From a phage: a DNA stretch of 28,420 bases. The notes below the pieces were generated by a model. The model saw only the letters and a list, made by a program, of their open reading frames with translations, made no database searches and was not told where the DNA came from. The stretch is taken from assembly GCA_014816205.1 (NCBI GenBank), contig GCA_014816205.1_4096.1; one strand, written 5' to 3'. This document shows, one piece after another, positions 1-16,968 of this stretch (its first letter is position 1; each line of letters starts with the position of its first letter). A program made the position numbers and the translations under genes.

Positions 1-255
1 TCATCGTCTGTTAAGTATTTCATTTTCATTTACTTTTTCCTTAATAGTGATTTTAAGATATCTAATCATACGTGCAACATATTCCTCTTGTCTATCAGTT
101 CCCAGAAGATATGGTAGTGATTGGAATAATACTTCTGCACTCCTTTCTGCTGGGGTTTGGTTTAGGTCAATTGGACGTTTATTGGTATATCTCTTGGCAC
201 GAACTAATCTCTCGACGTATTCATTATAGGTTAAGTATATCATTTCATTTTGCAT
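1..255 (-). CDS. small protein, tandem paralog family 1 (LGTNYQ-motif family)
   Basis: ORF track; ATG at 255 with AAGGA about 8 nt upstream; motif LPYLLGTDRQEEYV; start overlaps stop of next gene upstream. Confidence 0.6.
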   Translation of the reverse strand: MQNEMIYLTYNEYVERLVRAKRYTNKRPIDLNQTPAERSAEVLFQSLPYLLGTDRQEEYVARMIRYLKITIKEKVNENEILNRR

Positions 256-475
256 TTACTTTTTCCTTAATACTCATTATAAGATGTTCAATCATATTTT
301 GAACCATAAATTCTTGTTTATCAGTTCCAAGAACGTATGGTAGCTTCTGAAACAATACATTTGCAGATACTTCAGATATTGATTGATTTGGAACGAACTT
401 AAGAGTAATGTTTTTGGTTTTTAACATCTTCTCTTGAAATTCTTCATTCGTTAAGTATATCATTTCATTTTGCAT
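245..475 (-). CDS. small protein, paralog family 1
   Basis: ORF track; N-terminus MQNEMIYLT nearly identical to 1..255; motif LPYVLGTDKQEFMV. Confidence 0.6.
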   Translation of the reverse strand: MQNEMIYLTNEEFQEKMLKTKNITLKFVPNQSISEVSANVLFQKLPYVLGTDKQEFMVQNMIEHLIMSIKEKVNAK

Positions 476-691
476 TTACATTCTCTCATATATATTTTGG
501 GTTAAAAGGTCAATCCAGATTTCCACATATCGTTGTTGGTGTTGCGTCCCTAACAGTACACCCAACTTAGCTTCACACTCTAATAACAATCTGGTTTTGT
601 ATGGTAGACTTTGGAATCCTATAGTAGCATCTAATTTGGTAATTGCATAGTTGATTCGGATGAATCTTTCTTGCAATGTGATGTTGTTCAT
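476..691 (-). CDS. small protein, paralog family 1
   Basis: ORF track; motif LLGTQHQQRYV; ATGA stop/start overlap with 688.. gene. Confidence 0.6.
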   Translation of the reverse strand: MNNITLQERFIRINYAITKLDATIGFQSLPYKTRLLLECEAKLGVLLGTQHQQRYVEIWIDLLTQNIYERM

Positions 692-951
692 TTCTTAGTA
701 CACCTCAGTGGTTGGGTCATTTGATAAAAGTACAGCTTACCTTTGATTTCCAGTAGTAACTCCGCGATTAAGCGATTTACTTCTGTATCTTGATAGTTTG
801 TTCCTAAGAATACACCCATCTTTAACTCACGCATCATAATCATTTTCTTACTGTGTTGAATTTCTGGGTTGTGATAGATTGTATTACGTTTGTGCGTAAT
901 TTTTGTCATACGCTCGGTATATTCATCTTTACTTAAATTGATCATTTGCAT
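688..951 (-). CDS. small protein, paralog family 1
   Basis: ORF track 688..978 trimmed to internal ATG at 951 (track M1 is a TTG); GAGG 9 nt upstream; N-terminus MQMINLSKDEY matches family; motif FLGTNYQDTEV. Confidence 0.55.
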   Translation of the reverse strand: MQMINLSKDEYTERMTKITHKRNTIYHNPEIQHSKKMIMMRELKMGVFLGTNYQDTEVNRLIAELLLEIKGKLYFYQMTQPLRCTKK

Positions 952-980
952 GTTCATCAACCTCACATTTATTTTCAATA

Positions 981-1220
981 CTATTCTTTAGTTTGTAGAT
1001 ATAGTTTTCTTCCAATGTATCTCTTAAGTGCGATTATGTATTCATCTACATAATACTCCTGATAGTTTGTTCCTATGAATGCACCCACCTTTAACTCAAG
1101 TTTCATAATCATCTTATTTCCGTGTTTAATGACTTCTCCGTGATGGATTTCATTAAGTCCAGGTGCAATTTTCACCAGGCGTTCTTTATATTTTGCTTGA
1201 GATAATTTAATCATTTTCAT
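981..1220 (-). CDS. small protein, paralog family 1
   Basis: ORF track 981..1247 trimmed to ATG at 1220 (AAGGG upstream); N-terminus MKMIKLSQAKY; motif FIGTNYQEYYV. Confidence 0.55.
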   Translation of the reverse strand: MKMIKLSQAKYKERLVKIAPGLNEIHHGEVIKHGNKMIMKLELKVGAFIGTNYQEYYVDEYIIALKRYIGRKLYLQTKE

Positions 1221-1221
1221 G

Positions 1222-1452
1222 TTAATTACCCTTACATTTATTTTCAATACTATTCATGAGTTCTATAAGATAGTTTTCTACCTTACCTTCCTGATAGTTA
1301 GTCCCTAGGAAGTTGCACAACACGGCTTCTATGATTTTGATTTTCCTGATATCAGGCTTCAATCTTTTGTTATTGAATATTTGAATCCTTATATCTCTGG
1401 ATGCATTTAAACGTTTTTGATATTCATGGTAAGTTAAATGAATCATTTTCAT
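1222..1452 (-). CDS. small protein, paralog family 1
   Basis: ORF track; N-terminus MKMIHLTYHEY; motif FLGTNYQEGKV. Confidence 0.6.
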   Translation of the reverse strand: MKMIHLTYHEYQKRLNASRDIRIQIFNNKRLKPDIRKIKIIEAVLCNFLGTNYQEGKVENYLIELMNSIENKCKGN

Positions 1453-1667
1453 TTACGTTTAACCTCTCGCTGGAGGGCATCAATTAACATCAGTACAGCA
1501 TTCTCTTGATAGTTTGTTCCTAAGACTGAAAGCATCTTTATCTCATTTACTAAAATCAACTTCTTTGAGGGTTCAATAATGTGACTATCATAAACGGCCT
1601 TACGTGCTGGATAAGTTTTCGCCAGTATAACATAAAATTCGTCTTTACTTAAATTAATCATTTGCAT
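1449..1667 (-). CDS. small protein, paralog family 1
   Basis: ORF track; N-terminus MQMINLSKDEF; motif VLGTNYQENAV; ATGA overlap. Confidence 0.6.
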   Translation of the reverse strand: MQMINLSKDEFYVILAKTYPARKAVYDSHIIEPSKKLILVNEIKMLSVLGTNYQENAVLMLIDALQREVKRK

Positions 1668-1876
1668 TTACTTTTAACCTCTTTCTGTAGAGCGTCAATC
1701 CATAGATCTACATACATTTGTTGATAGTTTGTGCCTAAGAGTGCACCTACATAGAGTTCAGTTACTAGTGCGTGCTTAAGGTTAGCTTGGATGCTCTTAT
1801 CGCTTGATATCATTCTCCTTCTGCTTCCACATGTTTTCAGGAGTCTGATGTATTCAAAGCCTTGTAAATTTCTCAT
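1658..1876 (-). CDS. small protein, paralog family 1
   Basis: ORF track; motif LLGTNYQQMYV. Confidence 0.55.
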   Translation of the reverse strand: MRNLQGFEYIRLLKTCGSRRRMISSDKSIQANLKHALVTELYVGALLGTNYQQMYVDLWIDALQKEVKSKCK

Positions 1877-2088
1877 ATTTTGGATACCACCTTGTTACGT
1901 AAGGAACTTAATAATACGTCAGTGTAGATGTTTTGATAGTTTGTCCCTACGAATACACCCAACTTCATTTCAGCTATTATAACACATTTGTCCTCTTGTG
2001 CAATAGATTTGTTTAACACAATACTATACACTTTTGATTTGATAGTTTGTAACCTCCAATGATACTGATACTCATTAAGGATTATCAT
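1873..2088 (-). CDS. small protein, paralog family 1
   Basis: ORF track; motif FVGTNYQNIYT; ATGA overlap. Confidence 0.6.
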   Translation of the reverse strand: MIILNEYQYHWRLQTIKSKVYSIVLNKSIAQEDKCVIIAEMKLGVFVGTNYQNIYTDVLLSSLRNKVVSKI

Positions 2089-2335
2089 TCTCTTTCCTCC
2101 AGATTTCGGTTCTCATGTGTTGGCAGTGTGCATCAATATATTGCTCTATCGATCTGGCGATTGCTGTTTTATCAGTGCCTGTCATCAGTACAAGCATCTC
2201 GGCCTCACAGTGAAGTAAACGCATGATATCATAGGGTAATATTTCAGATACCGTGTCATAGTGTTTCTGTGCCAGTGTCTGCAATAGTTTACAATACATT
2301 TTGTGATTTAGTCTTTGTCGCATTGTTTCTTCCAT
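2075..2335 (-). CDS. small protein, divergent member of paralog family 1
   Basis: ORF track; degenerate motif LMTGTDKTAIARS; start uncertain (alternative ATG at 2323). Confidence 0.45.
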   Translation of the reverse strand: MEETMRQRLNHKMYCKLLQTLAQKHYDTVSEILPYDIMRLLHCEAEMLVLMTGTDKTAIARSIEQYIDAHCQHMRTEIWRKENDNP

Positions 2336-2580
2336 TCTCTTCTGGCTTGGCGGGTTTTATCTGATATTTCGTTTCTCAATGCAGAGATATATCGTAGAGT
2401 GAACAGTTCTTGATAGTTAGTCCCTATGAATTTATTAAGATATACATCAGCGTTGACGATATCAGCTTCACGGGAATTATAAAGTTTATTGTTAGTGCGA
2501 AGGGTGTTTAGAAGAGAGAAGAGGGCAGTCTGATACTCAGTGCTTGATAAAGTTTTCATATTTTTCCACAATTCGTTCAT
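2308..2580 (-). CDS. small protein, paralog family 1
   Basis: ORF track; motif FIGTNYQELFT; start uncertain (alternative ATG at 2559, MKTLSSTEY). Confidence 0.5.
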   Translation of the reverse strand: MNELWKNMKTLSSTEYQTALFSLLNTLRTNNKLYNSREADIVNADVYLNKFIGTNYQELFTLRYISALRNEISDKTRQARREWKKQCDKD

Positions 2581-2734
2581 TTAGTTTTATCTGTATAAGA
2601 TCCATTAGTTGTTCAAGATAATCGGTACAATATTTCTCTTGATATTGGGTTCCCACAAAGTACAGCAACCATAGCTCATGAACTTTAACTTTCATCTCGT
2701 TCCATGAAAGTGCATCGTCCGTCAAGTGTTTCAT
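2537..2734 (-). CDS. small protein, paralog family 1
   Basis: ORF track; motif FVGTQYQEKYC. Confidence 0.55.
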   Translation of the reverse strand: MKHLTDDALSWNEMKVKVHELWLLYFVGTQYQEKYCTDYLEQLMDLIQIKLNERIVEKYENFIKH

Positions 2735-2889
2735 TTACATTTATCCCTTATTAGATTTGTGAGTGCAACTATGTGTTCATGGATATAAAAATTTTGATGA
2801 GAAGTTCCAAGAAAGTACAGCATCCATCCCTCACTCTGCTCGACTTCTAGTTTAGTATCGAGTTGGTCAGATATGTTAATGAAAACCAT
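2731..2889 (-). CDS. small protein (52 aa), paralog family 1; absent from ORF track
   Basis: Hand translation codon by codon: MVFINISDQLDTKLEVEQSEGWMLYFLGTSHQNFYIHEHIVALTNLIRDKCK; ATG overlaps upstream stop; TGA overlaps start of 2537..2734. Confidence 0.5.
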   Translation of the reverse strand: MVFINISDQLDTKLEVEQSEGWMLYFLGTSHQNFYIHEHIVALTNLIRDKCK

Positions 2890-3113
2890 TAGTTCTTTTC
2901 CTTTCTTTCTATTTGTTTCATAAGAACATCGATATACTCACCCGCAAACCTATTCTGATACTGCGTCCCCATGAATTCCAACATCCATACTTCAGCAACC
3001 TTTTCTTCAATTTCAGTCCATTGTAAGTACATCATAGTGAAGTAAATGGTGTTCTCTTTTTTTCTGGCACTCTTAGCACGGGCCTCGTATTCAAAGTTAT
3101 TAATGATGTTCAT
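2889..3113 (-). CDS. small protein, paralog family 1
   Basis: ORF track 2889..3146 trimmed to ATG at 3113 (track M1 is a TTG); motif FMGTQYQNRFA. Confidence 0.5.
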   Translation of the reverse strand: MNIINNFEYEARAKSARKKENTIYFTMMYLQWTEIEEKVAEVWMLEFMGTQYQNRFAGEYIDVLMKQIERKEKN

Positions 3114-3327
3114 TACATTTGTCCATAATGTAATTCTTGAGTGCAACTATGTGTGCAATAACATACTCTTCCTGGAAGTTCGTCCCCAGTACAGCCAACA
3201 TGCGTACATCGGTGGTGTTTATCTTGTGTTCCAATCGAGTTAAACCTTTTATTTGTAAAAGGGTATCGTATTTGTTTAATGCATCAATGATAATTCTCAT
3301 CTTCTCAATATTACTTAAATGTTTCAT
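3100..3327 (-). CDS. small protein, paralog family 1
   Basis: ORF track; motif VLGTNFQEEYV. Confidence 0.6.
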   Translation of the reverse strand: MKHLSNIEKMRIIIDALNKYDTLLQIKGLTRLEHKINTTDVRMLAVLGTNFQEEYVIAHIVALKNYIMDKCNEHH

Positions 3328-3536
3328 AGTTTACTCTTAATGTAGTTCTGAAGTTCAATTAAGTATTTCCCTACATAATACTCCTGAAAGTCTGTATCCA
3401 AAAATGCACCCATAAGTAAATCCTTCTCCATTGCCCTTGATAAGTTAAGGTCTGCATTTGAAAGGTATATAAGTAATATTTCAGTCTGGACAGAATTAAA
3501 ACGTTTCTTATATTCTTCAGGTGTTAATATAATCAT
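3324..3536 (-). CDS. small protein, paralog family 1
   Basis: ORF track; motif FLDTDFQEYYV; ATGA overlap. Confidence 0.6.
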   Translation of the reverse strand: MIILTPEEYKKRFNSVQTEILLIYLSNADLNLSRAMEKDLLMGAFLDTDFQEYYVGKYLIELQNYIKSKL

Positions 3537-3748
3537 AATTTGCTCCTGATGTATTTCTCAAGAGATGACAAATACTTTTCCTCATAATACTCCTGATAGT
3601 CTGTTCCCAAGAATGCACCCAAAAGTATTTCATTTTCCAATACCTCGGCTAAGTTTAAATCAGACGTCTCTTCGTATATTATGAGGATTTCAAGTTGTCT
3701 GGCAGCGATGCGTTCAGTATATTGATATGAGTTTTCTATAATAATCAT
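3533..3748 (-). CDS. small protein, paralog family 1
   Basis: ORF track; motif FLGTDYQEYYE; close paralog of 3324..3536. Confidence 0.6.
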   Translation of the reverse strand: MIIIENSYQYTERIAARQLEILIIYEETSDLNLAEVLENEILLGAFLGTDYQEYYEEKYLSSLEKYIRSKL

Positions 3749-3954
3749 ATTTTACTCTTAATATCTTCTATTAAAAATCGAATCCATTCTTCAACATAAT
3801 CTTCCTGATGGTTTGTGTTCAGTACAGCCAACATGCGGATCTCTGCTCTTGCAACTTCAATTTCAGTTTTAGGCAGGTCTTTGCTGATATCCACCATTAA
3901 GTCCATGTATTTCAAGATAAGACCGTATGATTGGGTTCGTGTTATAGTTTTCAT
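3745..3954 (-). CDS. small protein, paralog family 1
   Basis: ORF track; motif VLNTNHQEDYV. Confidence 0.6.
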   Translation of the reverse strand: MKTITRTQSYGLILKYMDLMVDISKDLPKTEIEVARAEIRMLAVLNTNHQEDYVEEWIRFLIEDIKSKI

Positions 3955-4151
3955 TGTTTCCTCGTGGACAATATTTTATTTTTCAATGTATCCATATATT
4001 GCCACACCCATCTACCCTGATAGTTTGTTCCCAATGTAATCAAAAGGTATAACTCCATTCGTTCTACGTGTGTGTCTGTGTTGTAAATCTTTACGTAGTT
4101 TTTACGTAACAGTGATTGATATTCTTCTTTATTTAAAATACGCATTTTCAT
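3951..4151 (-). CDS. small protein, paralog family 1
   Basis: ORF track; N-terminus MKMRILNKEEY; motif TLGTNYQGRWV. Confidence 0.6.
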   Translation of the reverse strand: MKMRILNKEEYQSLLRKNYVKIYNTDTHVERMELYLLITLGTNYQGRWVWQYMDTLKNKILSTRKQ

Positions 4152-4345
4152 AGTTTACTCGTTATATCTTCAATTAAATACCAAATCCAATCGTTGACAT
4201 ACCTTTCCTGAAAGTTAGTTCCAATGAATAGTGCCATAATTAATTCACGCTTATAGGCAATACCACGGTCATGGGACTTATACATTATCATAGCCATGTT
4301 ATTGATAAGTCTTTCGTGGTGCTGTTCTTTAGTTAAAATACGCAT
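4148..4345 (-). CDS. small protein, paralog family 1; first gene of the array
   Basis: ORF track 4148..4375 trimmed to ATG at 4345 with AAGGGAG 5 nt upstream; motif FIGTNFQERYV. Confidence 0.6.
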   Translation of the reverse strand: MRILTKEQHHERLINNMAMIMYKSHDRGIAYKRELIMALFIGTNFQERYVNDWIWYLIEDITSKL

Positions 4346-4375
4346 AGGGACTCCCTTAAAATTAATATCAATCAT

Positions 4376-4403
4376 ATTTTATACGATTCATATAAAAAGT
4401 CAA
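4376..4403 (-). promoter_or_regulatory. sigma70-like promoter for the family-1 array
   Basis: Minus strand reads TTGACT, 16 bp, TAAAAT directly upstream of the first array gene. Confidence 0.45.
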
Positions 4404-4594
4404 TAACATTTTATTCGTAATACCCCTTTATCGAAGTCGCTAAGGTTACCCGCCCTTTAGCCCCCTACGCATTTTGCCATAGTCCAATCCCTTTTATTTC
4501 AAAAAAGTCAAGGGATTACCTATGCATTTTTTTAACGCATAATTTTAAAAACGCCTTGACTTTTTTCTGAATCAGTACTAGATCACTTTACGCA

Positions 4595-4804
4595 TTAATC
4601 CTTCGTTACGCTAACGATTATCTGTGTATCCCCGTAGTCCTGCCATACTTCCACGCCATCGGTCGCCCTGGTTAGTCGTGCTGTCATCTGCTTAATGGTC
4701 TTAGGCTTTAGTGGAACCTGTTGCAGTACTGTACGCATAGCATCATTGACGTTATCATGTACGCCTGCAATAGTACCTAGAACGCTGTATACTGTATAGA
4801 ACAT
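4595..4804 (-). CDS. hypothetical protein (69 aa)
   Basis: ORF track; AGGAGG 8 nt upstream of ATG. Confidence 0.6.
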   Translation of the reverse strand: MFYTVYSVLGTIAGVHDNVNDAMRTVLQQVPLKPKTIKQMTARLTRATDGVEVWQDYGDTQIIVSVTKD

Positions 4805-5844: not shown

Positions 5845-5930
5845 AGATACACCTATGCACCCTGTGGGCTAGTTTTTGTCTATGCGTATATAATAGCAAA
5901 GGGACTGACCGGAGTCAATCCCTTTTTTAT
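5845..5930. repeat. composite intergenic repeat, copy 1 (19-nt motif + terminator hairpin)
   Basis: tgcaccctgtgggctagt about 5857-5874; hairpin gggactgaccggagtcaatccc 5901-5922 followed by tttttt. Confidence 0.6.
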
Positions 5931-5939
5931 TCTTTTTTG

Positions 5940-6140
5940 TTAGATGATTCTCCAATCTTCTACGATGATTGTAAGATACCGGACCAACGATTCTAGTGAT
6001 TCGTGTTCTCGATAGTCTGCCGCTCCACCAGCGGTACAAGTACAGCCGATTAAACCATTTTGCAATTCCTTAATCTGTACATCGATAAGGTTGGCTTTAG
6101 CTTCTTTCAGTACTTCAACCAGGGCGAGAGCGATAGACAT
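5940..6140 (-). CDS. hypothetical protein (66 aa)
   Basis: ORF track; GGAG upstream. Confidence 0.55.
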   Translation of the reverse strand: MSIALALVEVLKEAKANLIDVQIKELQNGLIGCTCTAGGAADYREHESLESLVRYLTIIVEDWRII

Positions 6141-6230
6141 AATGTTTTACTCCAAACTATTGGCGGGAGAACTATTCCCCCGCTCTATGTAAAACATTAT
6201 ACATTACTGGTTAGTACTGTCAAATAGTTT
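6141..6230 (-). promoter_or_regulatory. PeSL-like promoter/hairpin cassette
   Basis: Minus strand TTGACA, 16 bp, TATAAT, then hairpin GCGGGGGAATAGTTCTCCCGC. Confidence 0.5.
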
Positions 6231-6488
6231 TTATGAAATATCTTCGATGTAGTCGGCCCATTTCATTTTTTCAGTACTGTCAATTGCTACCGGATTATTT
6301 GGATCAAACCATTCACCATTACCGCAGTACATACCAACGGCAACGGTTTTATAGCCATCCTGGGCAGTACTCCACGCCATCGCACGATAGATATGGCCTT
6401 TAACTGGTTGCAGTACTGGTAACGTTTTATGGTCTTCTACGTAGGCCATAGCTTGAGGATTTACCCGATATTGTGTGAATTGTTCCAT
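6231..6488 (-). CDS. hypothetical protein (85 aa)
   Basis: ORF track 6231..6521 trimmed to ATG at 6488 with AGGGGA upstream. Confidence 0.55.
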   Translation of the reverse strand: MEQFTQYRVNPQAMAYVEDHKTLPVLQPVKGHIYRAMAWSTAQDGYKTVAVGMYCGNGEWFDPNNPVAIDSTEKMKWADYIEDIS

Positions 6489-6563
6489 GATGTTTCCCCT
6501 TGTAGTTAGTAAAGTTATCATATCAGTACTATCAAGCTATGTCAATAGTACTGAAATAAAACT

Positions 6564-6788
6564 TTAGATTAGATTATTGATGCCGTTGATGGTAGACTCG
6601 CTTTCTTCTTTCTCCCATTGGCGGTAGTACTTCCATGCTTCATGATATGTGGCGATTAGTTCATCTTTTTGATCCTGAGTACATGCCAGTACTGAATCAC
6701 GATGAGCGGTGTTATAGATAGAATCGAATGATTTCTTCTCTTCTGCCAGGTTAGCTACTTCCCGCATCAGTTCATCAAAGTTAGCCAT
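6564..6788 (-). CDS. hypothetical protein (74 aa)
   Basis: ORF track; AAGGAG upstream; starts MA. Confidence 0.6.
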   Translation of the reverse strand: MANFDELMREVANLAEEKKSFDSIYNTAHRDSVLACTQDQKDELIATYHEAWKYYRQWEKEESESTINGINNLI

Positions 6789-6852
6789 TTTAGTACTCCT
6801 TTTAGTGGGGGAGGATATCTCCCCCTATGCAAAACATTATACTTTGTTTTAG
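6789..6852 (-). promoter_or_regulatory. PeSL-like promoter/hairpin cassette
   Basis: Minus strand TTGCAA...TATAAT then hairpin GGGGGAGATATCCTCCCCC. Confidence 0.5.
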
Positions 6853-7119
6853 TTACTTTGCAAGTACTTTTTTCATATAAAGATTATATTCTACACCGCC
6901 GTAACCTTCTAAGATGATATGTTTTGCGTTATCACGTTTGCACATAGTGAAACCGTTGTTGATGTGTTCTGCATTTTCCAGGGCTACATCACCGATTGCA
7001 GCACATACAGCACTTACAACGGTATTCCGCAAAGTACTGGTATCATTAGCGGTCATAGTAGTTTGCAGTACTACGTTGTCGTATACGTGTGCATTGATAG
7101 TGATTTCGATAGTGTTCAT
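6853..7119 (-). CDS. hypothetical protein (88 aa)
   Basis: ORF track. Confidence 0.55.
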   Translation of the reverse strand: MNTIEITINAHVYDNVVLQTTMTANDTSTLRNTVVSAVCAAIGDVALENAEHINNGFTMCKRDNAKHIILEGYGGVEYNLYMKKVLAK

Positions 7120-7205
7120 GGTGTATCTCCCGGACTGGCGGGAGAACTATTCCCCCGCTCTATGTAAAACATTATACGTTAATCTAACTACAATGCAAGT
7201 ACTTT
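7120..7205 (-). promoter_or_regulatory. PeSL-like promoter/hairpin cassette
   Basis: gcgggagaactattcccccgc hairpin plus RC of TATAAT and TTGCAT. Confidence 0.5.
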
Positions 7206-7397
7206 TTAAATTTTATTTCCGATATAGTCCGGTCTATTCTTTTCGGTCATACGCTTTGCTAATGTTTGCATATGGCTTATTGCGTTTAATGTGTCTTCCT
7301 CCAGGGATGAATCAACATAATCAGGATCATTCTTAACCTTGCAATGGTTATGATAGCGTAGTACTGCCAGTACTTTTTTAACTTCTTCAACTGTCAT
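7206..7397 (-). CDS. hypothetical protein (63 aa)
   Basis: ORF track; ATGA overlap with 7394.. gene. Confidence 0.55.
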   Translation of the reverse strand: MTVEEVKKVLAVLRYHNHCKVKNDPDYVDSSLEEDTLNAISHMQTLAKRMTEKNRPDYIGNKI

Positions 7398-7666
7398 AAT
7401 AAGTATTCCACTTCGTTAGCTTTCAGGTTAGTATCAATCATCAGTGGATTTTTGTAGTTCACAAAACGATTAGTTTTCTCGATAGCGAATCCCATATAAT
7501 CCAGCTTACTAACAGTACATTCATTCTTAAAAACTTCTTTCGCTGCATTGATGGCTGATTCAATTGATAACCGACCATCTAAGTTAATGTTTCCAAATGA
7601 TCCACCAGCAGAAGTAGGATTACCGTTCATATCTTTAATGATCATAGTAGCGGAGTAGCTAGACAT
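7394..7666 (-). CDS. hypothetical protein (90 aa)
   Basis: ORF track. Confidence 0.6.
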   Translation of the reverse strand: MSSYSATMIIKDMNGNPTSAGGSFGNINLDGRLSIESAINAAKEVFKNECTVSKLDYMGFAIEKTNRFVNYKNPLMIDTNLKANEVEYLL

Positions 7667-7750
7667 AATTTTGTTTCCTTTTAGTATCGGGGAGAACTAT
7701 TCTCCCCTTGATGTAAACTATTATACAGTACTAAGATACTTTGTCAATAC
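7667..7750 (-). promoter_or_regulatory. PeSL-like promoter/hairpin cassette
   Basis: ggggagaactattctcccc hairpin; minus strand TTGACA, 16 bp, TATAAT; 3' part shared with cassettes at 10524 and 10795. Confidence 0.55.
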
Positions 7751-7972
7751 TTAATTACGTTTAAAATGATATGTGCCTTTATCATCCTGTACGCCCCATA
7801 CTGATTTACCATCAACACCAGTGAAACCGGATTGTAATTCAATATGGAAACCATTATTATCAACTACAAAAACTTTTTTATTTTCATCCCGATAACATTG
7901 ATATTCTGAATCAACATTAAAGGCCGCATCATTCAGAAGATTGGAAGCGTAAATGCAAGTCATTGTAGTCAT
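7751..7972 (-). CDS. hypothetical protein (73 aa)
   Basis: ORF track 7751..8047 trimmed to ATG at 7972 with AAGGA upstream; track N-terminus is the translated hairpin. Confidence 0.55.
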   Translation of the reverse strand: MTTMTCIYASNLLNDAAFNVDSEYQCYRDENKKVFVVDNNGFHIELQSGFTGVDGKSVWGVQDDKGTYHFKRN

Positions 7973-8107
7973 GATTTTATTCCTTATTGCCAGGGAGAAC
8001 CATTTCCCCCTCTCGATATAAAACATTATACTTGATTCTAAGTACAATGCAAGTACTTTTTATCAAATACTTTAAAATAGTTTTCAGTACTGAATACTTA
8101 TATAATA

Positions 8108-8197
8108 GATACACTTATGCACCCTGTGGGTCAGTGAGTTATCTCTCAATGAATATATATTAGCAAAGGGACTGACCGGAGTCAATCCCTTTTTTAA
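8108..8197. repeat. composite intergenic repeat, copy 2
   Basis: tgcaccctgtgggtcagtg 8118-8136; hairpin gggactgaccggagtcaatccc 8168-8189 plus tttttt. Confidence 0.6.
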
Positions 8198-8203
8198 TCT
8201 TTT

Positions 8204-8788
8204 TTATCGTGTTATAGTTACGGCTTTTACATCACGCTTTTTATAGTACTGATTCCAGATATTGCGGGTTAAACCGTAATCAAGTACTTTAATAAGTCCA
8301 TTACGATCCTGGCCGATATTCTGTTTTCTGATATCTCTTATCGTTAGTGTTGATAATGTATCATCGACGTGTTGTAGTGCATCAGCAAAGCGGTGCTGGC
8401 GTTCAATGGCATTACGTTTAATATTGTACTTTAATTCGTTGCACGCGTTAACGTGCTTCACACTGCCTTTACTTGCAGTACTCAACCGATCCATAACGAT
8501 AAACATATTATCAGGATCGCATAAATGCATATGCACCTTTGCAAAGTACTGTTTCAATTGAGGGCGGTCATAGTCTAAAAAATTCCATACCTTACATTCA
8601 GTTTCATTTTGTTCTACACCCGCATCACAATTGGCGACCTTAATCACTAACCGATCATTTAAAGCGAATACAATACGGGAAGAACCCGCACCGATGATCT
8701 CCAGACCAGCTAACCGACAAGCTGAAAGGATCTCTTTGTTGGTTTCCATTTCTGACAGGGTACGGATGAATTTAGTATAATTACGCAT
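8204..8788 (-). CDS. minimal protein-kinase-like protein (194 aa)
   Basis: ORF track 8204..8845 trimmed to ATG at 8788 with AAGGAG upstream; motifs IGAGSSRIVF (Gly loop), VIKVA (Lys), IRDIRKQNIG (catalytic loop), KVLDYGL (DFG-like). Confidence 0.55.
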   Translation of the reverse strand: MRNYTKFIRTLSEMETNKEILSACRLAGLEIIGAGSSRIVFALNDRLVIKVANCDAGVEQNETECKVWNFLDYDRPQLKQYFAKVHMHLCDPDNMFIVMDRLSTASKGSVKHVNACNELKYNIKRNAIERQHRFADALQHVDDTLSTLTIRDIRKQNIGQDRNGLIKVLDYGLTRNIWNQYYKKRDVKAVTITR

Positions 8789-8819
8789 TGCATGTTCTCC
8801 TTGAGTTAATGAAACTATC

Positions 8820-9062
8820 TTACAGTACTTTACTATCAATGGCAACCACTTTTTTCACACTAACCGCGTGAATCACTTCCTTAGTGTTTTTAGTACTGAA
8901 TACTTTCGCTGTTCCATGTTCTACTGCAATGCGATAACGACCGTTAACATCAACCATATTAATAAAGTCCGGTGTACTAAACCGAGTAGTACGGCATTTC
9001 AGTACTGTTAACAGTTCCACCAGCGATGTAGTTTCTTTGATACGTTTTTCTAAAGTAATCAT
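8820..9062 (-). CDS. hypothetical protein (80 aa)
   Basis: ORF track 8820..9119 trimmed to ATG at 9062; track N-terminus MTVLKCF... is the translated promoter region. Confidence 0.55.
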   Translation of the reverse strand: MITLEKRIKETTSLVELLTVLKCRTTRFSTPDFINMVDVNGRYRIAVEHGTAKVFSTKNTKEVIHAVSVKKVVAIDSKVL

Positions 9063-9119
9063 TTTGTTTTCCCCGTGTTGGTATGTACATATAGTACTAA
9101 AACATTTGAGTACTGTCAA

Positions 9120-9338
9120 TTAGATAATTGCATATTTCTTTAAAGATAATGCGTCTTGGGTTGGCTGATACTCAATGCCGTTACCGTTATCTACTTTAAC
9201 TAATAAACCTTTGTCAATTAGTTTTTTAATAGTCCTTTGGCCTTGTTGAAAATTGGTAAAATGTGAATCATTACGAAAGGTATAACCGTGCTTAACTGCT
9301 TCATCAATAGTTTTCTTTTCGATTTTAGATAATTTCAT
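9120..9338 (-). CDS. hypothetical protein (72 aa)
   Basis: ORF track 9120..9395 trimmed to ATG at 9338; same promoter-module artefact as 8820 gene. Confidence 0.55.
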   Translation of the reverse strand: MKLSKIEKKTIDEAVKHGYTFRNDSHFTNFQQGQRTIKKLIDKGLLVKVDNGNGIEYQPTQDALSLKKYAII

Positions 9339-9391
9339 TTTGTTTCTCCCGTGTTGGTATGTGTACATAATACTAAAACAATTGAGTACTG

Positions 9392-9646
9392 TCAACGTGA
9401 TATTAGTTTTATTTTCTTATTATATTGTTGATGTTCATAAAGGTTTATCTTTCCTGTGTTCTCTATTACTATTCTGTTGTTAGTGTCTACATCGATTACA
9501 CGCAGTTTTCCGTTGCTTAACTTCCTTGGTAATAGGTTACCATTAATAAACTCATTAGCAAGCTGTACGGCCTTTGTGATGATTCTCTGTGGTGCTTTAT
9601 AGTGTACCCGCAAGATATTATCTTTAGATAGTTGTACCTTAATCAT
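9392..9646 (-). CDS. hypothetical protein (84 aa)
   Basis: ORF track; AGGAT upstream. Confidence 0.55.
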   Translation of the reverse strand: MIKVQLSKDNILRVHYKAPQRIITKAVQLANEFINGNLLPRKLSNGKLRVIDVDTNNRIVIENTGKINLYEHQQYNKKIKLISR

Positions 9647-9661
9647 TTTAGTTTATCCTAT

Positions 9662-9686
9662 AAAAAAGGCGGGAACTGATCCCGCC
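9662..9686 (-). terminator. rho-independent terminator
   Basis: Hairpin ggcgggaactgatcccgcc 9668-9686 followed on minus strand by TTTTTT; immediately downstream of 9709.. gene. Confidence 0.65.
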
Positions 9687-9708
9687 GTGTTGTTAGTACT
9701 GCAAGTTA

Positions 9709-10104
9709 TTAGATAACCTGGCGGCGTTTACTGTATACTGTTACACGATTACCCTTACGGTCGTGTCGGATCTCTTTCTGGTTGCGTACCAGTTCACTTG
9801 GACGCTTAAGGTTTGCCAGGTGATCCGCGTGAGTCCAAGCGGTATGGTTTGTCTGTACTTTGATATCAGAATCAGCGATAAATTCATCTTGTGCGTTAAG
9901 TACTGCCGCCAGTAAATCCGCTCGTTTTAGTTCTGCTGCTGTTAGTACTGGCTCCGGTGAATTCACAATATCAGAGATTTCTTTGAACTGTACGGCCCAG
10001 CGTTGGCCTTTCGGTGCATCTTTGCCCATGTCTTTAAATGCTGCTCCTTCCTCGCGTGCAACAATACGGGCAGCTTCACGGGTAGCGTAGAATTTAGTAA
10101 TCAT
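9709..10104 (-). CDS. hypothetical protein (131 aa); paralog of 22751..23014
   Basis: ORF track trimmed to ATG at 10104 with AGGA 8 nt upstream; shares KFYATREAARI...FKDMG and RKGNRVTVY with 22751 gene. Confidence 0.6.
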   Translation of the reverse strand: MITKFYATREAARIVAREEGAAFKDMGKDAPKGQRWAVQFKEISDIVNSPEPVLTAAELKRADLLAAVLNAQDEFIADSDIKVQTNHTAWTHADHLANLKRPSELVRNQKEIRHDRKGNRVTVYSKRRQVI

Positions 10105-10199
10105 GGTATACATCCTATTAGTTAAGTTAGTACTACAAGTTAGAGTCTATTATAAAGTACTATCTGGGCAATGTCAAATAGTACTTTAAATGGATTCTA

Positions 10200-10523
10200 T
10201 TACATATCTTTCTTACGTTTTACATCGTAGTATCGAACTGTTATTTCTTTGTTAATCTCTTTTTCGATGCGGTGAATAACTTTTTCTTTCGGGTTGAAAC
10301 CTATAACGGTTTCTTTAATGATCTCCAAGCCCGTGTATTCGCCTTGTGTGCCGTAACCGTATGTAAAGGTTTCATGTCCCAGGTCTTCCCAACGATCACC
10401 AATTAACGCAGACACGTAGCAAGAGTGGTAAGTATTGCCGTGTGAATCAGTCCACCGATTAACTTTAATGTCAAAGGAGGTTACAATTTTCAGTTCTACT
10501 TTCTGGGCAAGGATCATAGCCAT
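10200..10523 (-). CDS. hypothetical protein (107 aa); paralog of 16617..16940
   Basis: ORF track trimmed to ATG at 10523; shares RWTDSxGNTYHSC and FTYGY and KRKKD with 16617 gene. Confidence 0.6.
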   Translation of the reverse strand: MAMILAQKVELKIVTSFDIKVNRWTDSHGNTYHSCYVSALIGDRWEDLGHETFTYGYGTQGEYTGLEIIKETVIGFNPKEKVIHRIEKEINKEITVRYYDVKRKKDM

Positions 10524-10616
10524 TTTTATTTCTCTCTCTTTGTTAGGAGGGGAACCGTTTCCCCTCACTTGATGTAAACTATTATACAGTACTAAGATAC
10601 TTTGTCAATACTTATT
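10519..10616 (-). promoter_or_regulatory. PeSL-like cassette, near-identical direct repeat of 10790-10886
   Basis: About 95 bp matching the cassette at 10790-10886 except in the hairpin arms. Confidence 0.6.
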
Positions 10617-10794
10617 TTTTGGAAAGTTTACGCATTAATTCTACGCTTTCTTGTGAACGTTTTGCTACCTGGCAAGCTGCATGGACAGTAAACATTTTTG
10701 TATAGTCTGACGGTTTGTCACCGAACCGAGCGGCACGTTCACGGGCACTTGGAACTAATACGATTTCTTTCTTACAGATAGTGCATTTAGCCAT
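10612..10794 (-). CDS. small Cys-containing protein (60 aa), possible zinc-binding
   Basis: ORF track; CTIC...HAAC pattern. Confidence 0.5.
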   Translation of the reverse strand: MAKCTICKKEIVLVPSARERAARFGDKPSDYTKMFTVHAACQVAKRSQESVELMRKLSKK

Positions 10795-10886
10795 TTTTAT
10801 TTCTCTCTCTTTGTTAGGAGGGGAACCATTCCCCCTCTCGATGTAAACTATTATACAGTACTAAGATACTTTGTCAATACTTAATT
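10790..10886 (-). promoter_or_regulatory. PeSL-like cassette, direct repeat of 10519-10616
   Basis: Minus strand TTGACA...TATAAT, hairpin GGGGAATGGTTCCCC, leader AACAAAGAGAGAGAAATAAAAATG. Confidence 0.6.
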
Positions 10887-11156
10887 ATTGTAAATGTCGT
10901 GAATAGTGATAAAGTTTTTACGACCGTAAACCTGCAAATCAATATCAATGTAGTGCTTATCTAGTACATCCTCGACGCTTAACGCGGTGTCGTGGATATC
11001 TTCGTAGAATTGAGGATCTACAATCTTGCTTAAGTCATCCGGCGTTAACTCATCGTTAAGCCGTTGAACCGCCTGGATATCTGCTTCACGTTTCCAGTCT
11101 TCCAGGTTAGTAGTCAGTACTTGTTCGATTTCGTTAGCTGTCAGTAGAATCCGCAT
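10881..11156 (-). CDS. hypothetical acidic protein (91 aa)
   Basis: ORF track. Confidence 0.55.
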   Translation of the reverse strand: MRILLTANEIEQVLTTNLEDWKREADIQAVQRLNDELTPDDLSKIVDPQFYEDIHDTALSVEDVLDKHYIDIDLQVYGRKNFITIHDIYNN

Positions 11157-11225
11157 TTTAATGTTTCCTTATCAGTGGTTGATGTAAGTATTATACTCGT
11201 TTACTTTCTATTGTCAAACTATTTT

Positions 11226-11298
11226 ATCAGGGGAGGTTTTCTTATGTCTTACTCCTGGACTACTTAACGGGGTTACTTGTTTCGTTCCCCGTCCTGAT
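11226..11298 (-). promoter_or_regulatory. structured leader element, copy 1
   Basis: Closing stem ATCAGG/CCTGAT enclosing hairpin ACGGGG...CCCCGT; sits between two tandem minus-strand promoters. Confidence 0.4.
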
Positions 11299-11379
11299 GT
11301 AAAACATTATACTTGATTCTAAGTACAATGCAAGTACTTTTTTAAAAATAGTTTTCAGTACTAGCCACCAGCAAACAAT

Positions 11380-11466
11380 AGATACATTTATGCACCCTGT
11401 GGGCTGATTTGTTTCTATGCGTATATAATAGCAAAGGGACTGACCGGAGTCAATCCCTTTTTCAAT
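11380..11466. repeat. composite intergenic repeat, copy 3
   Basis: tgcaccctgtgggctgatt 11391-11409; hairpin 11436-11457 plus ttttt. Confidence 0.6.
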
Positions 11467-11471
11467 TATTT

Positions 11472-11621
11472 TTAAACTTGTTTCGGGTTGCGATAGGTGA
11501 TAGCGTTCGGGTACATTTGTTTAATGTTATTCCATGCCTGGTTAACATTGTAACCACTTGAGCGAATCAGTTGGTTGCTACCGACACCTTGAAACACTAC
11601 TTCGAATAAGAATTCTTTCAT
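11472..11621 (-). CDS. small protein (49 aa), absent from ORF track
   Basis: Hand translation codon by codon: MKEFLFEVVFQGVGSNQLIRSSGYNVNQAWNNIKQMYPNAITYRNPKQV; start overlaps upstream TGA. Confidence 0.45.
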   Translation of the reverse strand: MKEFLFEVVFQGVGSNQLIRSSGYNVNQAWNNIKQMYPNAITYRNPKQV

Positions 11622-11791
11622 GCTTTCACCTCGCTATCTGCTTTACCTTTACGCCAGGACATTACTAATTGTTCGCGTTGCCATAAGTCGAGTGATACAA
11701 AAAGTTTTGCGGTATCACTTTTAGGATACTCGCCATTAGTACCTAACCGATAAAACAGATCTTTCAGTACTGATAATTCTACTTGAATCAT
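11618..11791 (-). CDS. small protein (57 aa), absent from ORF track
   Basis: Hand translation: MIQVELSVLKDLFYRLGTNGEYPKSDTAKLFVSLDLWQREQLVMSWRKGKADSEVKA; ATGA overlap with upstream gene. Confidence 0.45.
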   Translation of the reverse strand: MIQVELSVLKDLFYRLGTNGEYPKSDTAKLFVSLDLWQREQLVMSWRKGKADSEVKA

Positions 11792-11880
11792 TTTATTACT
11801 CCTGATTGCGTTAATACTTCTACTATTGCATGAATGATCATAAGTACAGCTAAAACAATAATCATCGGATTCATTTGCAT
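11788..11880 (-). CDS. small hydrophobic peptide (30 aa), absent from ORF track
   Basis: Hand translation: MQMNPMIIVLAVLMIIHAIVEVLTQSGVIK; AAGGAG 8 nt upstream; first of three coupled small genes. Confidence 0.4.
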   Translation of the reverse strand: MQMNPMIIVLAVLMIIHAIVEVLTQSGVIK

Positions 11881-11897
11881 AAGCTGTACTCCTTATA

Positions 11898-12110
11898 TTA
11901 ATCTTTCAGCCAATGATCCTGAATGAATTTTTCGCCGGAACCTTGCTGCATTGTTTGTAACAGACGTTCACGATGAGCGGCGGCGAATTGCTCAGTACTA
12001 TGCGTTACGCCAGGCTGATAACGTGATACCCCATCCGGTCCGATGTATTGTACATCCCACGGTTTAGCGTTAGTATCAGACCATTTACGAACGATTAGTT
12101 GACCTTGCAT
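11898..12110 (-). CDS. hypothetical protein (70 aa)
   Basis: ORF track; GAGAGGAAAG upstream. Confidence 0.6.
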   Translation of the reverse strand: MQGQLIVRKWSDTNAKPWDVQYIGPDGVSRYQPGVTHSTEQFAAAHRERLLQTMQQGSGEKFIQDHWLKD

Positions 12111-12195
12111 TTTTCTTTCCTCTCAGTGGGGAGAATCATTTCTCCCCTTCATGTAACTTATTATACAGTACTATAATCTATTGTCAAATACTTTT
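12111..12195 (-). promoter_or_regulatory. PeSL-like promoter/hairpin cassette
   Basis: ggggagaatcatttctcccc hairpin; minus strand TTGACA...TATAAT. Confidence 0.5.
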
Positions 12196-12384
12196 TTAAA
12201 GTTTATGAATCAATTCTTTATCTAAGCGATAGCGTACATTATTAATGGTAACAGCATTATTTTTAATGCTACGCTGTACAGGTCCACCAGCAATAACAAA
12301 TGTTGCTTTATTACCCCGAACAATGATAGCACTTCCAGGATTACCGAAATCATCTTGTACTAAAATACTTGATAAGTTTTCCAT
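12196..12384 (-). CDS. hypothetical protein (62 aa)
   Basis: ORF track 12196..12390 trimmed to second ATG (12384), which has GAGGA at proper spacing. Confidence 0.55.
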   Translation of the reverse strand: MENLSSILVQDDFGNPGSAIIVRGNKATFVIAGGPVQRSIKNNAVTINNVRYRLDKELIHKL

Positions 12385-12462
12385 TTTCATTTCCTCTTAG
12401 TAGGGGAAGATGTTTCCCCTTGATGTAAGTACTATAACACTACTGAAAACTAAATGCAAGTA

Positions 12463-12819
12463 CTATGATAAAATCATGATAGGATATTCACTATCGATCA
12501 GTACCTCGAATCCGAAACCTTCGTACCATTCTTTAAGATTGAAGGCGTTATCTTCTCCTGTATCGCATTCTAAAATGATACAATCTGAATCATCGGCGGC
12601 ATCAATAAAGGCATTCATTAATTCGTTACCTTCACCATTGCCCCGACTATCAGGATCAACATAAAGAGAATCAATAAACGCTACACGGTCATAATCAAGA
12701 TCCGGTGCAATGATTCCACGTTTAACAAACCAGTACTGCAATTGTGCTACTTTGCCCTGTACTTGATAACCAGTGATCTCGCCATTGTCAGTAGTACGCG
12801 TGATATGTTGTATTCCCAT
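12463..12819 (-). CDS. GNAT-family acetyltransferase-like protein (118 aa)
   Basis: ORF track; RGNGEG resembles the acetyl-CoA-binding motif and WYEGFGFE the C-terminal GNAT motif; GAGGA upstream. Confidence 0.5.
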   Translation of the reverse strand: MGIQHITRTTDNGEITGYQVQGKVAQLQYWFVKRGIIAPDLDYDRVAFIDSLYVDPDSRGNGEGNELMNAFIDAADDSDCIILECDTGEDNAFNLKEWYEGFGFEVLIDSEYPIMILS

Positions 12820-12882
12820 GATTTCTATCCTCAGTTAAGATATAAAACATTATACACTATCTTTCAGTACTGTCAATACTTT

Positions 12883-13140
12883 TTATCTCATAGATCTATG
12901 CCAACAATTACGCGGGGGACGTTTAAAAGTACTATCATGATCCTCCTGGCAAGTTATGCAGTACTTACATCCCTTAACGGCCTGGCGTCGTTTCTCAGGG
13001 ATTATATCGCCGCAGTCGAGGCAATGTATCAGTGATTCTATTTGTGCGTTAATTTGCTTTCTAGCGTGGTTAACGGCGGCCTGAATCACTGCGTTGATCT
13101 CGTCTTGTTCGGCCCCGTCTTTCGCGTATCCTACTGCCAT
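12883..13140 (-). CDS. TraR/DksA-family C4 zinc-finger protein (85 aa)
   Basis: ORF track; CLDCGDIIPEKRR...CKYCITCQ matches the CxxC-x17-CxxC TraR/DksA zinc-finger pattern. Confidence 0.55.
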   Translation of the reverse strand: MAVGYAKDGAEQDEINAVIQAAVNHARKQINAQIESLIHCLDCGDIIPEKRRQAVKGCKYCITCQEDHDSTFKRPPRNCWHRSMR

Positions 13141-13471
13141 TATTTTAACCTCATTATAAAAATACTATAGTACTGTAATGCGACAATAATATTACTTGTT
13201 CTTACTTTTTCCAATCCACATGATACCACATATTCATCCCCATATGTGCGAAACGATACACCATGAAAATTTTTATACACTTGCACTACTAATCATAACC
13301 TTTCGTCTAACCAACTGCATAGAATTATACTACTTTACGCAAATTGATCAAGTATTGATCAGATCATTTTTTGATCAATATTATACAGTTACATTTGTGC
13401 ACCCTATGGGTTAGTGACGTTCTCGTCTTGATGTAAGTATTATGCCAGTACTGGATGATATTGTCAATAGA

Positions 13472-13669
13472 TTATTTTAATTTTTTTCTGTCATTGATTA
13501 ATGCTTTCAGTACTATACTAATGATTTGCAATGATTCATCAATGACTATAAAATTATTCTCTTTCATTAGATGATAGTTACCATTGATTGTATATTCTAA
13601 GGAGTACTGTTTACGTTTAATTTTTGATAATGTTTCTATTTGTTTTTGTACTGATTTCATGCTAATCAT
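13472..13669 (-). CDS. hypothetical protein (65 aa)
   Basis: ORF track; AGGA 9 nt upstream. Confidence 0.55.
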   Translation of the reverse strand: MISMKSVQKQIETLSKIKRKQYSLEYTINGNYHLMKENNFIVIDESLQIISIVLKALINDRKKLK

Positions 13670-13774
13670 TGTTAAACGTCCTGTAACGCATTCTAACGAG
13701 ATAAACGGTTTAGTACTGGCATTGTATAGGGTAATGAATTAAAGTCCACCAGCGTTAACCAGTGGGCTATAATC

Positions 13775-13918: not shown

Positions 13919-14017
13919 TTTATTTCTCTCTTAGGTTAAGTTAACTACTGTTTATAAAACTTATTATACAGTACTATCAAACGTTGTCAATATCTTTAAT
14001 AGTACTGGTAATATATT

Positions 14018-14197: not shown

Positions 14198-14289
14198 TTT
14201 TAATTCCTTAGTAGTGTAGTTGATAAAAGTTATTATGCCAGTACTATCAATCAGTGTCAATAGCTTTGATAGTACTGTGATAATATTTT

Positions 14290-15160: not shown

Positions 15161-15162
15161 AT

Positions 15163-16043: not shown

Positions 16044-16044
16044 A

Positions 16045-16940: not shown

Positions 16941-16968
16941 TTTAGTATTCCTTAAATTAATATGTGTC

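Follow-up and report, generated by a model that had tools for sequence, protein, structure and literature searches.

The 28,420-nt stretch analysed here in full (the window; contig GCA_014816205.1_4096.1 of GenBank assembly GCA_014816205.1) comes from an Asteriusvirus, a jumbo coliphage of the PBECO4/121Q/G17 type, and its positions 1-4375 carry the promoter-proximal 20 genes of a ~31-gene tandem array. All members of the array are diverged paralogs of one protein family, that of PHROG 4148, which has no assigned function and whose entry is silent on context. The array grew by tandem duplication of a unit consisting of a gene tail plus a gene and was reshaped by unequal crossover, and its repertoire turns over between phages. 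The genes that are retained are under purifying selection, about twice as relaxed as that on their neighbours in the direct terminal repeat (DTR) of the genome. The organisation of the array, its position at the terminal-repeat boundary, its fold and its evolutionary pattern are new relative to the PHROG entry and the literature found. Our preferred reading of the function is tentative, and we are nearly evenly divided on it, leaning slightly to doubt: the members would be early, non-structural binder proteins, each with its own target, serving host takeover or counter-defence.

Megablast assigns the window to the Asteriusvirus jumbo coliphages: positions 1-4600 are 99.9% identical to Sharanji and G17 and 99.4% identical to slurp01, with ~30 other records at 82-97%; each gene under these matches is annotated as ‘hypothetical protein’. 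A preliminary description, made from the DNA letters alone, had reported 20 consecutive minus-strand genes of 52-90 aa, and both the list of open reading frames (ORFs) and our own extraction confirm 20 back-to-back minus-strand ORFs of these sizes across positions 1-4375 (numbered 1-20 with rising window position, gene 20 being promoter-proximal). The tight packing that it described also holds, with 17/19 junctions overlapping or abutting (-44 to +1 nt; 15 true overlaps and two abutting junctions, at 0 and +1 nt). Its ‘no intergenic space’ does not, however, as genes 5 and 4 are separated by a 29-nt spacer, the sole real intergenic gap in the window array, and ‘mostly’ was slightly generous for ATGA stop/start overlaps, which occur in exact form at 9/19 junctions (genes 14 and 13 overlap by a single base). 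The count of 20 arises because the window edge cuts the array. Beyond that edge Sharanji has 11 further members (9 contiguous + 2), so that its array comprises 29 contiguous members and 2 more after a few genes of another family, 31 in total. The phAPEC6 counterparts of the window array are gp472c-489c.

A profile hidden Markov model (HMM) of the family (73 columns, built from alignment A1, which includes these 20 sequences) matches 20/20 genes at E 1e-17 to 1e-25, and in 18/20 the match runs from columns 1-3 through columns 70-73; a MAFFT alignment was made as well. Independently of A1, phrog_4148 matches 7/8 tested members (E ~2e-10 to 5e-24) over positions 1-73 of 74; among these 8, gene 10 had no PHROG match at E 0.01. 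Because the HMM and phrog_4148 matches are near full length, the similarity exceeds the short motif, and the earlier view of a single multigene family whose members align beyond that motif is upheld. The core itself, described as LGTNYQ, is common to the members but looser than written: T is found in 20/20, Q at +3 in 19/20 and G-T in 18/20, while the literal GTNYQ is confined to 8/20. We refer to it below as LGTxxQ. The HMM also recovered two intact members that are unannotated in the Sharanji GenBank record OR545507 (L001 7340-7570, 76 aa, E 2e-18; L001 4530-4748, 72 aa, E 5e-20), which accounts for apparent intergenic gaps in that record.

The motif had not been recognised as a named domain, and it matched none in our searches: Pfam gave no match above threshold, only sub-threshold noise (8 members, then 47), a sequence-profile search of the PDB gave zero matches at E up to 10, and PADLOC gave sub-threshold matches only (best typeIV_Cas11, E 0.0018, in 8/47 members). 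Rfam had no match anywhere in the window. An AcrFinder scan of Sharanji detected no known anti-CRISPR (PMC11895373). Among 5.8 billion clusters, a word-indexed search returned 119 matches, all of Asteriusvirus type, and an exhaustive profile search of 1.84 billion representatives returned 84 clusters at E up to 1e-3, from RaK2-like jumbo phages only. The weak profile matches fall in the Klebsiella phages RaK2, K64-1 and KP13-7 (Alcyoneusvirus) and in metagenomic contigs, one of which, a phage fragment of 29% GC, has at least 11 members in scattered positions. RaK2 has ~12 weak members scattered in small groups, with no single long array; the RaK2 paper puts ~10% of gene products down as paralogues and says nothing more on the subject. 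No match to the array was found in 5,426 complete E. coli genomes (RefSeq complete-genome set). Many members are deposited as ‘Escherichia coli’, on contigs of ~345-358 kb that look like whole Asteriusvirus genomes within bacterial assemblies. The family is undescribed in the Asteriusvirus, Sharanji, RaK2, CBB, phAPEC6, fEgEco12 and G17 papers and in jumbo-phage reviews, and a look through the literature turned up no transcriptome for an Asteriusvirus.

Structures were modelled here for two members, genes 7 and 10. The AlphaFold2 model of gene 7, made from a 47-sequence alignment, has a mean predicted local distance difference test score (pLDDT) of 96.1 and a predicted template modelling score (pTM) of 0.82, with helices at residues 8-17, 19-27, 33-47 and 54-71 and a small bridge joining N-terminal residues to the LGT turn. 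The gene 10 model (AlphaFold2, pLDDT 78) has three long helices in the same order and layout, helices 1 and 2 being merged. Against BFVD, Foldseek matched gene 7 only to other Asteriusvirus family members, at template modelling (TM) scores of 0.80-0.90. As those paralog models were predicted separately and superpose on ours, a common fold, which the preliminary description had proposed to look for, is independently supported. In the PDB, the best Foldseek match had an E of 1.3, and the match to the fold of AcrIIC4 reached a TM score of 0.29 only. As modelled, the family domain is a small soluble four-helix scaffold without a recognisable fold relative. The maximum Kyte-Doolittle hydropathy in any 19-residue window is 1.01, and the proteins lack transmembrane segments. 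Conserved positions in helix 4 are hydrophobic with i, i+3/4 spacing and the positions between them vary, a periodicity that suggests a conserved buried core with variable exposed faces.

Net charge ranges from -8 to +7 and isoelectric point (pI) from 4.3 to 9.8 across the 20 members. About half are basic (pI 9.3-9.8), as might be expected if the proteins were regulators of the phage's own programme, i.e. small nucleic-acid-binding proteins or modulators of transcription or translation. The position in the early region would fit such a role, and jumbo phages offer a precedent in expanded families of putative transcription factors (PMC7824862). The closest parallel is the ~35-copy zinc-ribbon expansion of phage G reported in the comparative review of Iyer and colleagues, which does not single out the LGTxxQ family; it is the same general phenomenon at a similar scale (31 copies here), but the fold is different and LGTxxQ proteins have no metal-binding residues that could serve as ligands. 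Since 7/20 members are also acidic (pI 4.3-6.6) and two near-neutral (7.0 and 7.9), we give a regulatory role for the family a slim chance.

Paralog identity within the array is 12-56% (mean 24.5%). Adjacent paralogs are more similar than the overall mean (30.5% vs 24.5%; permutation p 2e-4), and a direct neighbour is the closest paralog in 13/31 genes. A 226-nt repeat (positions 788-1013 vs 1057-1282) retains 74% nucleotide identity, and the 29-nt spacer upstream of gene 4 is the remnant of the 3' end of a gene-6-like copy, so that the duplicated unit consisted of an upstream gene tail plus a gene. The closest paralog pairs have synonymous divergence (dS) of 0.85-1.9 and ratios of nonsynonymous to synonymous divergence (omega) of 0.19-0.47; with dS this high even in the closest pairs, the duplications are old. 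A 22-nt identical segment had earlier been taken as the mark of recent recombination between members. The segment exists, at a gene junction within the 226-nt duplicated unit, with its first copy at 965-986 and its second at 1234-1255 rather than 1233-1254, but recent recombination is not required to account for it (chance ~0.08). The longest exact repeat is 30 nt (230-259 = 450-479). We considered the 22-nt and 30-nt repeats as proof of recent gene conversion and rejected them, the estimated chance probability being ~0.06-0.08 given a background identity of 74-85%.

The same divergence bears on the idea that the array is a ‘genomic accordion’ that amplifies the dosage of one function, or else non-functional repetitive DNA. 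The tandem head-to-tail layout and variable copy number are what such explanations would lead one to expect, but copies that are 12-56% identical are too diverged for extra dosage, and each has its own conserved ortholog under purifying selection. All reading frames are intact (20/20), the coupling signals are conserved and folding is confident. Both versions are largely refuted, and we give them next to no credence.

Reciprocal orthologs link 22-26/31 Sharanji genes to 121Q, UE-S1 and vB_Ec-M-J (M-J). Pooled ortholog omega (simple pairwise Nei-Gojobori, over whole genes, as for all omega values here) is 0.33 against 121Q, 0.32 against UE-S1 and 0.35 against M-J, compared with 0.16 for 19 adjacent DTR genes and 0.35 for a second gene family downstream. 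No hypervariable patch is seen: substitutions between orthologs fall evenly over the length of the protein, and they follow the variability among paralogs (Spearman 0.62). An omega below 1 together with even substitutions leaves positive selection on each gene unsupported, and the earlier proposal of a rapidly diversifying family under diversifying selection, for which dN/dS across paralogs had been suggested as a check, is not borne out.

An arms race would go further than repertoire turnover: each member would be under positive diversifying selection, and the array would be young, turning over fast through recent duplication and recombination. The repertoire does differ between phages, being almost wholly replaced in phage JNE01, omega is twice that of the DTR neighbours, and a few ortholog pairs have omega >1, on very few substitutions. 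The pooled ortholog and closest-paralog values nevertheless contradict positive selection at the whole-gene level, dS points to old duplications, ortholog change follows the variability already present among paralogs instead of marking out a patch, and the 22-nt run is statistically uncompelling for recent exchange. We consider an arms race of this kind unlikely.

Turnover of the repertoire is seen at several scales. A survey of related phages, proposed earlier as a check, gives array copy numbers from 18 to 31, with 31 in Sharanji, ~28 in UE-S1, at least 27 in M-J, 25 in 121Q and ~20 in JNE01. phAPEC6, which is ~95% identical to the window in DNA sequence, has 18 genes to the window's 20. The 379-bp difference covers genes 13 and 14, and phAPEC6 is joined exactly at a 45-nt, 80%-identical repeat formed by the 3' ends of genes 13 and 15; a join at a paralogous repeat is the hallmark of unequal crossover. 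Within one and the same pair of genomes compared for orthologs, dS of adjacent genes ranges from 0 to ~1.0, a scatter that indicates a recombinational mosaic. In JNE01, the seven DTR proteins beside the array share 82-98% identity with their window counterparts, whereas 19 array members average 37% identity to their best match (two exceed 60%) and downstream genes ~25%. This contrast marks a switch from conserved to hypervariable DNA at the DTR boundary. The JNE01 array (OR670491, L007 11866-17272) represents an alternative ‘haplotype’ of ~19-20 members, two of them clear Sharanji-type orthologs, and is also present in Turkey5 (tblastn). There is no obvious correlation of this haplotype with the listed host; the Sharanji-type array also occurs in other phages that infect O157. 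We left CMSTMSU out of the comparison, as this unverified record has the array in fragments consistent with frameshift errors.

The DTR (~21 kb) is contained entire in the window, at positions 4443-25493. We took the DTR boundaries from annotation and from the ends of deposited records: the G17 record begins at the base matching window position 4443 and ends at the one matching 25493, while in M-J the DTR is annotated at 1-21525, the first array gene starts at 21624 and the DTR end maps to ~4444. The two estimates of the inner boundary thus agree within one base. DTRs of ~20-21 kb have been reported for Sharanji (PhageTerm, PMC11895373), fEgEco12 (restriction digests, PMC13070987) and G17 (read coverage, PMC6563267). 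The first gene block met in unique DNA is the array, which lies outside the DTR, unlike the repeat-encoded modules of the T5/SPO1 type. DTR and array genes all point in the same direction, inward from the terminus. The coding strand of the DTR carries 21 near-consensus sigma-70 promoter sites of the form TTGAC-N16-18-TAnnnT (5890-25128, minus), mostly perfect TTGACA-N16-TATAAT and spaced at about one per 1-2 genes.

By comparison, the array has one such site on its coding strand in positions 1-4442. The preliminary description took this TTGACT-N16-TAAAAT element (4403-4376) to be a single promoter for the whole unit; the element is present as described, and a role in driving the whole unit is plausible, as no other strong promoter and no terminator was found inside the window array. 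A generic promoter scan of the array returned 31 promoter-like sites against 25.9 expected, which is no excess. The predicted promoter is kept in 121Q, M-J, UE-S1 and Sharanji, and in JNE01 despite the replaced array. Beyond the window edge in Sharanji, the next comparable promoters lie ~440 bp on, within the array, and farther on in rare intergenic gaps. Shine-Dalgarno (SD) sequences stand 4-11 nt upstream of 13/20 genes, in many cases as part of the conserved codons for the C-terminus of the gene before, and the remaining genes have ATGA-type overlaps. In CBB, a related phage, the region presumed to be early is marked by RpoD-like promoters (PMC5259590). From these signals we infer early, host-polymerase-driven, polycistronic expression with translational coupling.

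If the members are early binder proteins, host RNA polymerase would start at the array promoter and produce one long polycistronic early mRNA, along which ribosomes would pass from gene to gene via the overlapping stop/start codons. The products would be non-virion, non-enzymatic early proteins in which the hydrophobic core and the LGTxxQ turn would hold a stable scaffold. As exposed helix faces and net charge differ from copy to copy, each copy probably binds and modulates a different host or competitor target. The preliminary description had suggested a role in host range, superinfection exclusion or anti-defence, and the place of the array in the genome is compatible with such a putative role. 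None of phAPEC6 gp472c-489c is among the 62 proteins of the virion proteome, which lists nothing between gp347 and gp549 (PMC7247149). Several points weigh against this reading. Small proteins easily escape virion mass spectrometry, and no homology, fold match or domain fusion in Pfam, PHROG, PADLOC, PDB or Foldseek points to an activity or a partner. Promoter, single transcript and early timing are all predicted, and read-through from upstream terminal-repeat promoters may also enter the array. The picture of a conserved scaffold with a variable surface comes from sequence periodicity and not from measured burial, an omega below 1 with even substitutions is by itself no sign of an arms race, and conservation in the LGTxxQ and helix 4 region could instead reflect a functional interface common to the members.

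Taken to its conclusion, a shared interface would make the members adaptors: the N-terminal strand, LGTxxQ turn and helix 4 would dock all of them on one hub (e.g., host RNA polymerase, the ribosome or a protease), and helices 1-3 would recruit or block clients. The conservation does form one contiguous C-terminal element, with T invariant and Q and L near-invariant, and length variation and deletions occur only in helices 1-3. The LGTxxQ domain is also found as an N-terminal module ahead of longer, unrelated C-terminal extensions in P0190 (phage UB, 269 aa) and P0193 (RaK2_00362, 121 aa), and likewise with an extension in P0177 (122 aa); these fusion proteins and the RaK2 member match phrog_4148, and their C-terminal parts have no Pfam or PHROG match. 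Yet the conserved positions of helix 4 are hydrophobic and heptad-like, as in a buried core rather than on a surface, and the model is without a known hub candidate. In our estimate a common docking function is improbable, and we retain the reading of the members as binders with separate targets.

Table. Coordinates of the array genes and associated elements in the window. HMM E, E-value against the family HMM; motif variants are those at the LGTxxQ position.
Feature	Position	Strand	Description
DTR inner boundary	4443	.	array promoter 40 bp beyond, in unique DNA
Unique DNA, opposite genome end	25494-28420	.	within the window
Sigma-70-type promoter	4376..4403	-	TTGACT-N16-TAAAAT; predicted
SD sequence AAGGGAG, gene 20	4351..4357	-	5 nt upstream of ATG 4345; kept in JNE01 (start GTG there)
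Gene 20	4148..4345	-	65 aa (MRILTKEQ...FIGTNFQ...); HMM E 3e-19; phrog_4148 E 7e-20; ORF formally open to 4375
Gene 19	3951..4151	-	66 aa, TLGTNYQ; HMM E 1e-18; ATGA overlap with gene 20
Gene 18	3745..3954	-	69 aa, VLNTNHQ; HMM E 2e-22; ATGA overlap
Gene 17	3533..3748	-	71 aa, FLGTDYQ; pI 4.3; HMM E 2e-18; phrog_4148 E 1e-18
Gene 16	3324..3536	-	70 aa, FLDTDFQ; HMM E 9e-22; nearest paralog gene 17 (51% identity, dS 1.9)
Gene 15	3100..3327	-	75 aa, VLGTNFQ; HMM E 4e-23; 3' end is one arm of the crossover repeat
Gene 14	2889..3113	-	74 aa, FMGTQYQ; HMM E 3e-22; missing from phAPEC6 (within 379-bp indel)
Gene 13	2731..2889	-	52 aa, short N-terminus, FLGTSHQ; HMM E 2e-17 (columns 14-72); phrog_4148 E 2e-10
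Crossover repeat D15	2735..2779	.	45-nt paralogous repeat; other arm 3113-3157, 80% identical; phAPEC6 joins exactly here
Gene 12	2537..2734	-	65 aa, FVGTQYQ; HMM columns 25-73 here vs 1-73 in Sharanji
Gene 11	2308..2580	-	90 aa, FIGTNYQ; 44-nt overlap with gene 12; HMM E 4e-19; phrog_4148 E 2e-18
Gene 10	2075..2323	-	82 aa, most divergent, MTGTDKTAIARSIEQY; Q replaced, 6-aa insertion; HMM E 3e-19
Gene 9	1873..2088	-	71 aa, FVGTNYQ; HMM E 5e-23
Gene 8	1658..1876	-	72 aa, LLGTNYQ; HMM E 3e-24
Gene 7	1449..1667	-	72 aa, VLGTNYQ; phrog_4148 E 3e-21; modelled member
Gene 6	1222..1452	-	76 aa, FLGTNYQ; HMM E 4e-25; 3' end carries 22-nt run copy 1234-1255
Gene 5	981..1220	-	79 aa, FIGTNYQ; HMM E 7e-25; nearest paralog gene 4
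Spacer, 29 nt	952..980	-	contains part of 22-nt run 965-986
Gene 4	688..951	-	87 aa, FLGTNYQ; HMM E 4e-24
Gene 3	476..691	-	71 aa, LLGTQHQ; HMM E 2e-20
Gene 2	245..475	-	76 aa, VLGTDKQ; HMM E 2e-20; 30-nt exact repeat in common with gene 1 start
Gene 1	1..255	-	84 aa, LLGTDRQ; complete; HMM E 6e-23; array runs on past window edge

Individual genes differ in detail between phages. We place the start of gene 20 at ATG 4345 because the upstream ATG, at 4375, lies directly against the -10 element and is not preserved in JNE01, while the SD sequence and the 4345 start are conserved; G17 and phAPEC6 annotate the same 198-bp form. Gene 13 is absent or fused in phAPEC6. Compared with Sharanji and G17, gene 12 has lost 60 bp in frame near position 2713, between two direct GACGATG repeats; the loss takes out 20 aa of helices 1-2 (65 aa here vs 85 aa). 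The deletion also drops a chance promoter-like site, TTGACG-N17-TAGAAT. Orthologs of gene 10, the most divergent member, are recovered by the family profile (P0083, E 1e-11).

The 219-bp intergenic region at 4376-4594, which spans the DTR boundary, is 94% identical in five phages; their arrays differ by 13-17%. This region folds far better than shuffled controls (z -4.7) and contains three copies of TTGACTTTTT or its complement, together with the terminus sequence GGGTAACCT|TAGC, which is conserved. The region may serve in packaging or in recognition of the terminus. Within the DTR, two kinds of promoter cassette recur. The first has a promoter followed by the leader hairpin GGGGAGAATAGTTCTCCCC (e.g., at 7689 and 14523, with variants at 6164 and 7139), and the second has the form AAAAAGGGA-TTGACT-N17-TATTAT (TAATAT at 8185) followed by GCCCACAGGGTGCA, at 5856, 8118, 11391 and 15082, with plus-strand copies at 19795 and 24399. 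The sign of the GC skew changes near 26 kb.

A second paralog family (‘EEYFQxSLV’, with an invariant F-Q, ~100-190 aa; phrog_33775/phrog_13866, of unknown function) accompanies the LGTxxQ genes in all lineages examined, either directly downstream of them or interleaved. Its HMM has 9 matches in Sharanji (L001 256-6059), 13 in 121Q, 14 in JNE01 (L007 16.7-26.1 kb), 20 in RaK2 (L004 ~10.5-39.7 kb) and 13 in the metagenomic contig (L009 ~1.2-17.2 kb). The two families are unrelated by hhalign (probability 0.2%). Their co-occurrence across genera may reflect a functional link.

Blocks of many small, mostly orphan, non-structural genes at a genome end are familiar from the SPO1 host-takeover module, the T5 pre-early genes and the T4 early clusters, where host polymerase reads them from sigma-70/sigma-A-type promoters as soon as infection begins. 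The genes of such a module are unrelated to one another, whereas the Asteriusvirus array is one expanded family; the modules lie within the terminal repeat with many promoters, whereas here the 21-promoter block is the DTR and the array sits just outside it behind one promoter. They also have no sequence or fold relationship to the array. Nearer in organisation are the multigene families (MGF) 110, 360 and 505 of African swine fever virus (ASFV) and the Bcl-2-like and ankyrin families of poxviruses, which are arrays of diverged paralogs beside terminal repeats, subject to unequal recombination and with strain-specific repertoires. The poxvirus Bcl-2-like proteins are small helical scaffolds with varied surfaces, each directed against a different host target. 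The array resembles these families in being adjacent to a terminal repeat and variable between phages in copy number (18-31) and repertoire; the parallel is one of analogy, as there is no homology, the hosts belong to a different domain and a role of the array in host range is putative. A bolder proposal, which we regard as doubtful, is that the array is the phage counterpart of the poxvirus and ASFV terminal families: an exchangeable library on a phage-specific four-helix scaffold at the DTR junction, in which each copy would neutralise a different target in host immunity or physiology, swaps of repertoire (Sharanji vs JNE01 type) would set which E. coli strains can be exploited, and the ‘EEYFQ’ family may act alongside.

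With ~30 genes, the array contributes about 5% of all genes in a 350-kb phage, in a group that is considered for therapy and in which ~83% of proteins are unknown. If the members are a repertoire of inhibitors, the array would be a compact and tractable source of new E. coli protein binders, the copies being small (65-90 aa), soluble and confidently folded, and it would serve as a marker of host-range differences among Asteriusviruses. Should the array prove dispensable, it would still document the expansion and contraction of a tandem family in phage genomes. The sharp switch at the DTR boundary, from conserved genes to a hypervariable block, shows a site of genome plasticity, and the resemblance to terminal multigene families in large DNA viruses of eukaryotes would be of general evolutionary interest.

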